Positions 1 to 1,975 of a stretch of DNA of 4,084 nt are shown in pieces. The position numbers and the translations under genes were made by a program. The notes beneath the pieces are model-generated. The model did not search any database. It had not been told where the DNA came from and was given only the letters and a program-made list of their open reading frames with translations. Source of the stretch: a virus (taxonomy: Duplodnaviria > Heunggongvirae > Uroviricota > Caudoviricetes); IMG/VR virus record IMGVR_UViG_3300029745_000166; one strand, 5' to 3'. The stretch's first letter is position 1, and each line of letters begins with the position of its first letter.

Positions 1-93
1 CAGAATATTTTGCTGAAAAATGCGGTTTTCTCACACGGACGGATAACACGAAATCCTGCGAACTGACAAAAACTAAGTGAATAAAAGTAAAAA

Positions 94-128
94 CCCCGTT
101 TGTTGGCTGCAAGCGGGGTTTTGTGTTT
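94..128 (+). terminator. Rho-independent terminator: 9-bp stem (one G.U pair) with 7-nt loop, followed by TTTTGTGTTT
   Basis: Seen in sequence: 94-102 ccccgtttg pairs with 110-118 caagcgggg, loop ttggctg, then a T-run at 119-128. An A-run precedes the stem (aaaagtaaaaa), so it could also terminate minus-strand transcription. Confidence 0.55.
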
Positions 129-197
129 CCTGACTCTGGAAAAGTCAAAGGGGAAAGTGTGTTTGATTTTAGCAAACTGATTCGGGAGATTCGAGTG

Positions 198-296
198 ATG
201 GCTGAAAAATTATCCACCTGGAAGTTCATTCTTATCTGGCTGGTGTTTGTGATTATGGCCTCCGGTTATTTCATCGGTCAGATACGCTGGTGGTGA
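198..296 (+). CDS. Hypothetical 32-aa single-pass membrane peptide ([32 protein letters not shown]), translationally coupled to Rz
   Basis: ATG at 198 with GGGAGA 9 nt upstream; hydrophobic core of about 20 residues; TGA at 294-296 lies one nt before the Rz ATG at 298. An in-frame GTG at 159 would give 45 aa. No homolog recognised; the call rests on coupling and hydrophobicity only. Confidence 0.3.
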
Positions 297-297
297 A

Positions 298-765
298 ATG
301 AACCGCGTACTGTGCGTGGTCATCATTGCCCTGCTGGTGGCCTGTGGTGCGCTTAGTCTGGGGCTGAATCATTACCGCGATAACGCCATCACCTACAAAG
401 CGCAGCGCGATAAAAAAGCCAGAGAGCTGGAGCTGGCAAACGCCACCATTACTGATATGCAGGTGCGCCAGCGCGATGTTGCTGCGCTCGATGCAAAATA
501 CTCGAGGGAATTAGCCGATGCGAGAGCTGAAAATGAAACTCTGCGTGCTGATGTTGCCGCTGGTCGTAAGCGCCTGCGGATCAACGCCACCTGCTCCGGT
601 ACCGTGCGTGAAGCCACCGGCACCGCCCGCGTGGATAATGCAACCGGCCCCCAACTGGCAGACACCGCTGAACGGGATTATTTCACTCTCAGAGAACGGT
701 TGATGCTGATGCAGAAGCAGCTGGAAGGGGCGCAGGACTATATCCGCACTCAGTGCCTGAAATAG
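298..765 (+). CDS. Rz: Rz, inner-membrane spanin subunit (i-spanin) of the phage lysis cassette
   Basis: The 155-aa product aligns along its length with lambda Rz as I recall it (shared blocks [53 protein letters not shown]). It has an N-terminal transmembrane segment followed by a charged, coiled-coil-like periplasmic domain. Confidence 0.93.
518..703 (+). CDS. Rz1: Rz1, outer-membrane lipoprotein spanin subunit (o-spanin), wholly embedded in Rz in the +1 frame
   Basis: The 61-aa product matches lambda Rz1 ([40 protein letters not shown]). It has a signal peptide with a lipobox (LVVSAC) and a proline-rich mature region. GAGGGA sits 8 nt upstream of the ATG at 518; an alternative ATG lies at 533. 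Confidence 0.9.
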
Positions 766-793
766 GTTTTGCTGATGCGCGGTATTGTCGCCG

Positions 794-858
794 TATCCCC
801 GCATTAACAGAGACCGCAGCCCGACAGGGAGACTCCTCTGCGCGAGTGTGCGGGGATA
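794..858. repeat. GC-rich nested inverted repeat: perfect 10-bp arms tatccccgca / tgcggggata around a 45-nt spacer that contains a second inner inverted repeat (cagag / ctctg)
   Basis: Seen in sequence: 794-803 is the exact reverse complement of 849-858; 807-811 cagag pairs with 836-840 ctctg. No ORF of meaningful length overlaps it on the + strand, and no U-tract follows. Confidence 0.45.
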
Positions 859-1115
859 ATCAAAAACGACACACACCGGGGTTTACCGCGTTAACGGAGC
901 GCGGCGTTGTCCCCTCATAGTCGCCTGTCCGGTGCGATGGTGGAAGAAGCCGGATGTTTATCACTATTAATTGATGACACAGAAATGGATTCATTGAATT
1001 TCAGCACGTTTTTGTATTCGTGTTATTGAACATCTGTTTATTTTACTTTTAACATATTGATAATAAAAAGAGCTGTAAATCTTTAGATGAGTCGATTTTG
1101 TCCGGGGAAGTTCAA

Positions 1116-1256
1116 ATGGATTTTATGCTGACGGTTTCTGGAGTGGTTATCCTGTCCATTGCTTATACTGCAGATAAATATGGCTGCCATTTGTTATCAC
1201 GTATTGGCGCTTATTGTTCGTTGATGCTGATTTTCTCGTCGCTTTTTTTTGAGTAA
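1116..1256 (+). CDS. Hypothetical 46-aa hydrophobic peptide (MDFMLTVSGVVILSIAYTADKYGCHLLSRIGAYCSLMLIFSSLFFE) with two hydrophobic segments
   Basis: ATG at 1116 with GGGGA 7 nt upstream; an AT-rich tract precedes it (about 960-1100) with several TTGA-type -35-like hexamers; TAA at 1254-1256. Below the ORF-track cutoff; no homolog recognised. Confidence 0.3.
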   Translation: MDFMLTVSGVVILSIAYTADKYGCHLLSRIGAYCSLMLIFSSLFFE

Positions 1257-1821: not shown

Positions 1822-1933
1822 CCGGGATCCATGTCCGGTTTCTCTGCAAGTTAACCATATGAAAAATATAAAAACATGCTTTCCATGAACCGGACATGCG
1901 CAAAAAATAGACACTAAAACCGGACATGACCGG
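1822..1933. repeat. cosB: Three copies of a CCGGACATG core: one inverted at 1829-1838 (CCATGTCCGG) and two direct at 1890-1898 and 1920-1928 (the last within CCGGACATGACCGG); candidate small-terminase binding elements of cosB, analogous to lambda R3/R2/R1
   Basis: Repeats seen in sequence. They sit between cosN and the small-terminase start, with an A/T-rich spacer (1851-1884) between the first and second copy where lambda has its IHF site I1. Functional assignment is inferred. Confidence 0.55.
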
Positions 1934-1975
1934 TTTTGTTGTGATTGTGAGGTGAGAGTTTTTGCGAGGTGAGGA

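Follow-up and report, generated by a model that had tools for sequence, protein, structure and literature searches.

What does a terminator followed by a very short membrane-peptide reading frame do immediately upstream of Rz, where an endolysin gene would normally be expected? The question was raised by an earlier note, made from the letters alone, on a 4,084-nt stretch of tailed-phage DNA (IMG/VR record IMGVR_UViG_3300029745_000166; hereafter the window), which called the context upstream of Rz atypical for a lysis cassette and recognized no endolysin C-terminus in bases 1–80. Here we describe the setting of this locus, the gene that it contains, the elements that accompany the gene in other genomes and a candidate regulatory RNA encoded on the opposite strand.

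The lysis region around Rz

The best database matches to the window are Escherichia coli prophages and Stx1 and Stx2 phages (94–98% identity), and the window represents part of the late genes of an E. coli prophage that is lambdoid and Stx-phage-like. The closest match, a prophage of E. coli G1/2 (locus L001), is 98.1% identical over window positions 1–800 and carries, upstream of the window equivalent, a class II holin gene (L001 4246–4461) followed by a GH24 lysozyme gene (L001 4466–4999). Window base 1 corresponds to L001 position 5001, and the lysozyme stop codon ends 2 nt earlier, at 4999. Bases 1–80 are indeed devoid of an endolysin C-terminus, because the window begins after R; the endolysin is not missing. 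The cassette is lambdoid in composition, since Rz with an embedded Rz1 lies in the window, and the holin and endolysin genes that the earlier note had proposed to look for upstream are both present in the 98%-identical L001.

The R–Rz spacer is 297 nt long. Its first part (window 1–89, plus strand) begins just 3′ of the position of the R stop codon in relatives and lies outside the mobile cassette described below; it has a GC content of 37% and is highly polymorphic among close relatives. Window 1–85/94 is common to the 933W/Sakai-type phages, in which the ant gene comes next. The Rz i-spanin gene occupies 298–765 on the plus strand (Pfam Phage_lysis, 7e-49; phrog_13), starting 1 nt past the stop codon of the peptide gene, and the Rz1 o-spanin lipoprotein gene lies inside it in another frame (518–703, plus strand; Pfam Rz1, 9e-21; phrog_3198), with the lipobox VSAC. 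Farther downstream are nu1 (1976–2485) and the large terminase gene (from about 2460).

Several small elements were observed around these genes. Within the 1.2-kb Rz–nu1 spacer, a 61-aa minus-strand ORF (1389–1574) matches Pfam DUF3950 (9e-19) and has the look of a genuine small gene in the opposite orientation. Also in the AT-rich DNA that follows Rz is a 52-aa hydrophobic ORF with a TTG start (1098–1256, plus strand), which has no Pfam match and could have arisen by chance. A second two-way terminator-like hairpin (AAAACCGG...CCGGTTTT, window 1915–1938) is located ~40 nt upstream of the nu1 start. Across the R–Rz spacer, phage CP-1639 has a 95-aa minus-strand ORF annotated as a hypothetical protein (EC_CP1639_38; L002 4942–5229), the equivalent frame of which spans L001 4942–5229, that is, from about window position 229 back to upstream of base 1. 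This ORF shares bases with both the hairpin and the peptide gene, and its annotation is likely an artefact.

A conserved membrane-peptide gene and its leader hairpins

The reading frame that the earlier note had singled out runs from ATG198 to TGA296 and encodes 32 aa; it is a single-pass membrane ORF, and its stop codon (TGA, 294–296) is separated by one nucleotide (A297) from the Rz ATG at 298, just as described. The same frame can be entered farther upstream, at GTG159, and there it is open with a GTG or TTG start and a Shine–Dalgarno (SD) sequence in 18/18 aligned homologs. Judged by this comparison, the frame conserved in evolution starts at GTG159 and encodes 45 aa (159–296, plus strand); it makes the better gene model, and it is the longer of the two versions that had been put forward for searching against phage proteins. 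Both versions match PHROG 6632, a family of unknown function: the profile aligns at 1.4e-29 over residues 13–57 of the 57-aa ORF, which is the whole 45-aa form, and at 5.5e-20 with the 32-aa form. The 45-aa form is already annotated in phage CP-1639.

The gene is under purifying selection, with dN/dS values of 0.08–0.40 against 12 diverged homologs, and 80 close viral copies, which were chosen by peptide similarity, differ by synonymous changes only. When 1.84 billion representative proteins were searched exhaustively with a profile, 41 clusters at 50% identity were recovered, with members of 32–86 aa ranging from Pseudomonas to Enterobacterales; an initial scan of viral contigs had returned only near-identical E. 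coli copies, and a scan with P0047 had returned none. Family members share the pattern x-D-x-S-K-L-I-R-E-L-R-x-M-x-E-K-L-x-x-W-K/R-F, which is followed by a transmembrane (TM) helix and often by a C-terminal I-R-W-W. In hydropathy and hydrophobic-moment profiles, the window peptide consists of an amphipathic N-terminal helix (about residues 3–14; moment 0.62), a WKF interface, a TM helix (about residues 23–42) and a C-terminal RWW. The net charge on the N-terminal side is +2, and an N-in orientation is therefore expected. The peptide had no match in Pfam, NCBIfam or PADLOC (the last at E ≤ 1), and a full-text literature search with its sequence found nothing. In the sources searched, the family likewise had no transcript or protein data and no mapped transcription start site.

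Two start sites appear to serve the gene. The SD region of GTG159 (AAAGGGGAAAG, 147–157, plus strand) reads AAGGAG in most relatives, which have A at position 152; the window has G at this position, as against A in 80/80 close viral relatives examined, and this changes AAGGAG to the weaker AAGGGG for the GTG start. A second, internal SD sequence, GGGAG (184–188), precedes ATG198 (184–200, plus strand), and the corresponding M14 is present in 18/18 aligned sequences. The invariant GAG of codon 10 belongs to this internal SD sequence, which supports a genuine second start and a 32-aa product. Some relatives (Serratia L020 and Dryocola L022) retain only the short form and do not have the leader elements directly upstream of it; because these two loci carry the bare 32-aa core, the leader platform is dispensable for the peptide.

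The leader itself opens with the hairpin that the earlier note had called a strong terminator, a description that is well borne out. This element, SL1 (84–131, with the stem-loop at 90–122), was recovered by terminator scan, folding and covariation. It comprises a 5′ A-run, a stem of 14 pairs and then TTTTGTGTTT, and its 3′ flank is a T-run. The folding energy is −21.6 kcal/mol (z = −4.2), and none of 200 shuffled sequences was equally stable. RNAalifold predicts 12 pairs, with compensatory changes at 7 of them, and a model-based alignment of 26 sequences retains 10 pairs, 6 of which covary and in which 99% of cells are paired; when the partner columns were slid against each other, pairing fell to 25–64%. 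Both flanks (AAAGCGAAAG ... CTTTCTGTTTC) are conserved in all contexts, and SL1 is therefore interpreted as a two-way terminator. In the sense direction it is probably leaky, because a strong sense terminator should harm the baseplate operons in which it is also found (see below). Its main role is probably to terminate the antisense RNA predicted below.

A second, smaller stem-loop, SL2 (131–147; TGACT-CTGGAAA-AGTCA), stands directly 5′ of the SD sequence. Its stem differs between lineages (CCTTG/CAAGG, CGTTA/TAACG, CCTTCTG/CAGAAGG and CATG/CATG, with TGACT/AGTCA in the window), and 4/5 pairs change on both sides in an alignment (A6) that was fitted to the model and so leans toward structure. 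A lone 5-bp stem of this kind occurs in ~20% of shuffled sequences, and the stem in the window lies 3 nt further 5′ than in most relatives. RNAalifold found SL1 only, with no conserved plus-strand structure over the invariant codons discussed below. A search of the whole window against Rfam at E ≤ 1 gave no match at or above the gathering score, including to AgvB, AsxR, STnc100, Sok and IsrK. The sole match was to rimP-leader, on the minus strand from 155 to 66 (29.2 bits against a gathering score of 47; E = 0.07). It falls on the same strand and in the same region as the antisense RNA predicted below, and is probably a chance match driven mostly by the terminator hairpin.

A mobile cassette in late operons

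On comparative evidence, the segment from about 84 to 296, comprising SL1, SL2, the SD sequence and the ORF, is a horizontally mobile unit between R and Rz/Rz1. Across the settings surveyed, the peptide gene is preceded by the same type of hairpin and is co-oriented with the flanking late genes. It lies between a GH24 endolysin gene and Rz in lambdoid phages of E. coli and Salmonella; in Edwardsiella, between a GH108 endolysin gene and a DUF2514 gene that contains an embedded lipobox ORF; in myophage-type prophages (SEN34, Rac-SA53 and those of Yersinia, Serratia and Dryocola), between the gene for the gpV baseplate spike and the following baseplate gene, W; in the tail-tip region of Pseudomonas siphophages; and, as free-standing tandem copies between ParE/RelB-type toxin–antitoxin pairs, in a bacterial chromosome (L122). 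A 138-aa Citrobacter protein at the endolysin position (L013) was considered as a third endolysin family and not counted, as it has no Pfam match. The GC content of the cassette is 44% compared with 54–57% in R and Rz, in line with insertion, and other close relatives have different contents in the same spacer, as in PhiR12_1, which shares window 1–155 and then continues with other small ORFs. Among 5,426 complete E. coli genomes, 899 carry the cassette, in up to six copies that are mostly unannotated. That this is a real mobile peptide cassette is, in our judgment, very probable. The suggestion in the earlier note that the terminator insulates an upstream moron fits poorly with this distribution, in which the hairpin belongs to the peptide cassette and moves with it between contexts, and does not belong to a moron or to R.

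The cassette itself shares two properties with morons such as lambda bor and lom and HK97 gp15: it is present or absent between otherwise collinear late genes, and its GC content deviates to below that of its neighbors. A classical moron, however, has a promoter upstream and a terminator downstream, whereas here the hairpin terminator lies upstream of the ORF, no conserved sense promoter was found and the lone promoter-like element faces backwards. EHEC prophages have been reported to carry short antisense-oriented ‘anti-sRNA’ genes with two-way terminators where morons are found (Tree et al. 2014, PMC4104026); the window had no match to AgvB or AsxR. A preprint on Pas sRNAs was also considered and rejected as a match, as the RNAs described there lie upstream of the holin gene, at another site.

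Some copies stand beside other small TM ORFs. In the chromosomal locus L122 (GCA_900156195.1), two tandem platforms (1416–1635 and 2120–2379) each carry a small TM ORF, one of the PHROG 6632 family (family A) and one PHROG 12997-like, flanked by ParE/antitoxin and YafQ/RelB pairs. In the Dryocola prophage (L022 2522–3110), a single platform is followed by four small TM ORFs between baseplate genes V and W, in the order PHROG 12997-like, PHROG 1115-like, PHROG 12997-like and family A core, and several of them end in IRWW. We tentatively propose, as a possibility that falls short of being probable, that the unit of SL1, SL2, SD and start codon, together with a backward promoter, is an undescribed portable phage platform that gates, and perhaps switches, the forms of small membrane peptides from at least three unrelated families (PHROGs 6632, 1115 and 12997), and that it has spread through lambdoid, P2-like or Mu-like and Pseudomonas late operons and chromosomal toxin–antitoxin islands.

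The same slot is filled differently in the 933W/Sakai-type phages, where a 44–48-aa single-TM ORF (family B; PHROG 4906) lies between ant and Rz (about L003 3351–3485 in VT2-Sakai; L116 19749–19895, ECs_5741, in Sakai Sp15). Family B was found in 276 phage records, almost all of them Stx-converting or related phages of E. coli and Shigella, and is mostly unannotated. One member, XECs191, has a ribosome-profiling signal in strain Sakai (PMC5597208). Hfq-CRAC (PMC4104026) and ribosome-profiling (PMC5597208) data sets of EHEC Sakai were consulted for experimental support of the cassette; the Sakai prophages Sp5 and Sp15 have ant and family B and are without it, and only family B has a ribosome-profiling signal there. 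Homology between families A and B was tested and rejected (hhalign probability 0.7%), as was homology between families A and D, which have only a C-terminal ...AIRWW stretch in common (72%). In phiSTEC1589-Stx1c (L117 1192–1469), families A and B stand in tandem between R and Rz, and so they are not simple alternatives.

A candidate antisense RNA and the readings of the cassette

The first codons of the peptide gene are constrained beyond what they encode. In 18/18 homologs, codon 3 is GAT, codon 4 is xTT, codon 5 is AGC and codon 12 is the rare CGA, and the third position of codon 10 is G; the remaining codons vary freely, and synonymous divergence among them is near saturation. Pooled synonymous divergence is 0.29 in codons 2–13 versus 0.75 in the core. 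For the GAG of codon 10 the internal SD sequence is the better explanation, and a bias toward A/T following a weak start may account for some of the other constraint. Read on the minus strand, codons 3–12 give TCGAAT-17-TGcTAAAAT, which we predict to be a sigma-70 promoter of the extended −10 type (166–194, minus strand), with a −35 element TCGAAT (194–189) matching the consensus at a weak 3/6 positions, a 17-nt spacer, TG (174–173) and a −10 element TAAAAT (171–166). A minus-strand TAnnnT within +4 to +14 of the start codon occurs in 27/27 modules compared with 0.8% per position elsewhere in the same ORFs; the module and homolog sequences are phylogenetically related, and counts of this type are not independent events. 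With a simple sigma-70 weight matrix, this site is the best on either strand within 250 nt in 20/26 modules and the second best in 4 more.

Changes in the protein leave the motif in place. Distant members keep TGnTAnnnT although S to I replacements, which hit only the free ‘n’, and replacements of D by E, Y, N or H, which spare the −7 T, have altered the peptide. GAT and TTT are disfavored codons in the GC-rich Pseudomonas host, and three diverged Pseudomonas phage copies keep GAT TTT AGC AAG while adjoining codons vary. In PhiR12_1 and in the second copy of L122, two cassettes whose ORFs are unrelated, a hexamer TATACT stands at the same +8 to +13. From the promoter geometry, transcription would begin near 159 and end near 86, giving a cis-antisense RNA of ~75 nt (86–159, minus strand) that folds into two stem-loops (z = −3.9). 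We consider the sequence-based case for the production of this RNA to be evenly balanced. A scan, the alignments and the sigma-70 matrix revealed no conserved promoter on the sense strand. Another promoter-like site on the minus strand that the scanner proposed (281–252) was dropped, as it falls within the TM-coding part and homologs do not share it.

The best overall reading of the locus, to which we give an even chance, is that of a late-expressed membrane peptide gated by a terminator and an antisense RNA. The cassette would consist of SL1, SL2, an SD sequence with a weak GTG start, the 45-aa single-pass inner-membrane peptide, and an internal SD sequence and ATG that can yield a 32-aa form reduced to the helix. 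As the sense strand has no conserved promoter, the peptide would be made only from the late transcript, which in the lambdoid setting would read through SL1 under Q antitermination. The minus-strand promoter would start an RNA at about the GTG start (~159) that runs through the SD sequence and SL2 and stops at SL1 (~86); this RNA would fold into two stem-loops preceded by a short 5′ tail that can pair with the GTG start and its SD sequence, and may block or delay synthesis of the long form. The internal SD sequence and ATG lie outside the RNA duplex, and the ratio of long to short form could therefore be switched. Terminator and antisense RNA together might thus act as a double lock that keeps a membrane-active and probably harmful peptide from being made before the late phase. 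A ribosome ending at 296 could re-initiate at the Rz ATG at 298.

The principal competitor to the gated reading is a plain moron-like membrane peptide with no antisense RNA, in which the hairpin is a leaky terminator or an mRNA-stabilizing stem and the frozen sites reflect the needs of translation initiation (A/T-rich codons after a weak GTG, and the internal SD sequence). The mosaic distribution and low GC content agree with it, the invariance of GAG coincides with the internal SD sequence, the −35 element is weak, no RNA family matches and L020 has its core without a platform upstream. It does not readily explain why serine is encoded by AGC in 18/18 homologs when AGT or TCA/TCT would be more A/T-rich, why arginine is encoded by the rare CGA in 18/18, why TGnTAnnnT survives amino-acid replacements, why a −10-like hexamer recurs at the same offset under unrelated ORFs, or why all contexts conserve the A-run on the 5′ side of the hairpin, an element required just for minus-strand termination. 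We regard this explanation as unlikely, though by no means far-fetched.

A dedicated lysis component, whether antiholin-like, pinholin-modulating, releasing a SAR endolysin or regulating the spanins, would give the dual start an antagonist/effector meaning as in lambda S107/S105, and we find it improbable. The gene adjoins Rz in lambdoid phages with both GH24 and GH108 endolysins, its dual start is conserved, and the same slot in the 276 other phage records is filled by family B, with its ribosome-profiling signal in Sakai (PMC5597208). Like lambda S105/S107 and S21 68/71, the gene encodes a small membrane protein in a lysis cassette with two in-frame starts and a charged N-terminal extension; in contrast to them, the extension has 13 residues instead of 2–3, and a single TM domain is followed by a 3-residue C-terminal tail. 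That tail is just RWW, without the long charged, hydrophilic C-terminal domain typical of holins, and searches of Pfam, PHROG and NCBIfam gave no match of the peptide to holin, antiholin or LysA families. Relatives have a separate gene for a class II holin upstream; no homology is detectable between families A and B, which can co-occur; and at least five other phage lineages have the peptide among baseplate or tail genes, with a free-standing copy in a chromosome as well.

Among the functions that the peptide itself might have, an effect on membrane integrity or energization, and hence on lysis timing, ranks first as a leading guess held with low confidence; a lysis or membrane-toxic role as such is rather doubtful. 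What links the peptide to lysis is its position, and that position is not constant. Stx phages habitually keep some small TM ORF beside Rz, which, like the adjacency to Rz, suggests lysis. Among the options put forward in the earlier note, an unrelated membrane peptide exploiting Rz translation comes closest to what was found, in that members of the family also occur at a distance from lysis genes, in operons for the baseplate and tail, and the peptide here ends one base before Rz.

A type I toxin–antitoxin system for prophage maintenance or abortive-infection defense, with the peptide as toxin and the antisense RNA as antitoxin, appears very improbable. Like hok/sok, ibs/sib, symE/symR and zorO/orzO, the cassette has a hydrophobic peptide of <60 aa (45 or 32 aa, with one TM helix), structured leader stem-loops and a tendency to tandem arrangement, as in the two copies between ParE/RelB pairs in L122; in type I systems the antisense RNA covers the translation-initiation region, as the predicted RNA would do here over the ribosome-binding site. 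Against this stand the failure to find a conserved sense promoter for the toxin, the co-orientation of the cassette with the late operons in which it is embedded, and the absence of any match to known type I toxin families or PADLOC defense models. A degenerate remnant, either the N-terminus of a SAR endolysin left behind, as the earlier note had considered, or a chance ORF behind the R terminator, has nothing in its favor beyond a hydrophobic peptide and its position next to R, and can practically be dismissed in view of the intact SAR endolysin gene upstream in relatives, the lack of any BLASTP alignment to the neighboring endolysin at E ≤ 100, and purifying selection in many contexts on a family that extends from Pseudomonas to Enterobacterales.

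The gated reading, a late membrane peptide under a terminator and an antisense RNA, has its nearest parallels in phage regulation. In temperate phage P22, sieB/esc/sas combines two in-frame starts, long and short membrane-associated products and a small antisense RNA that arises inside the gene and covers the upstream start, the arrangement predicted for the cassette; in contrast, SieB is about four times larger, has no sequence similarity to the peptide and is encoded in the immunity region, whereas the cassette is mobile in late operons. P22 sar RNA is a short, terminator-ended cis-antisense RNA to ant. The sar/ant and lambda OOP/cII pairs resemble the cassette in having an antisense RNA of ~70–77 nt that ends at an intrinsic terminator and is complementary to part of an operon mRNA, OOP RNA being 77 nt according to a review. 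The targets of sar and OOP are regulators, unlike the membrane peptide of the cassette; there is no Rfam or sequence match to either, and the cassette RNA is a prediction from sequence. Because the cassette has no homology to sieB/esc/sas, sar, OOP or the type I toxin–antitoxin loci, these likenesses indicate resemblance in design and not membership.

Synonymous changes suffice to destroy the predicted promoter, and the model is thus testable with the peptide unaltered. Roughly one complete E. coli genome in six carries the cassette, as do many Shiga-toxin phages, and it is almost never annotated. In Stx phages, lysis timing governs toxin release. If true, the gated reading would bring into the late or lysis program of these phages a new antisense RNA and a membrane peptide made in two isoforms under regulation, and it would mean that genes for small membrane peptides travel from phage to phage with their own compact control unit.
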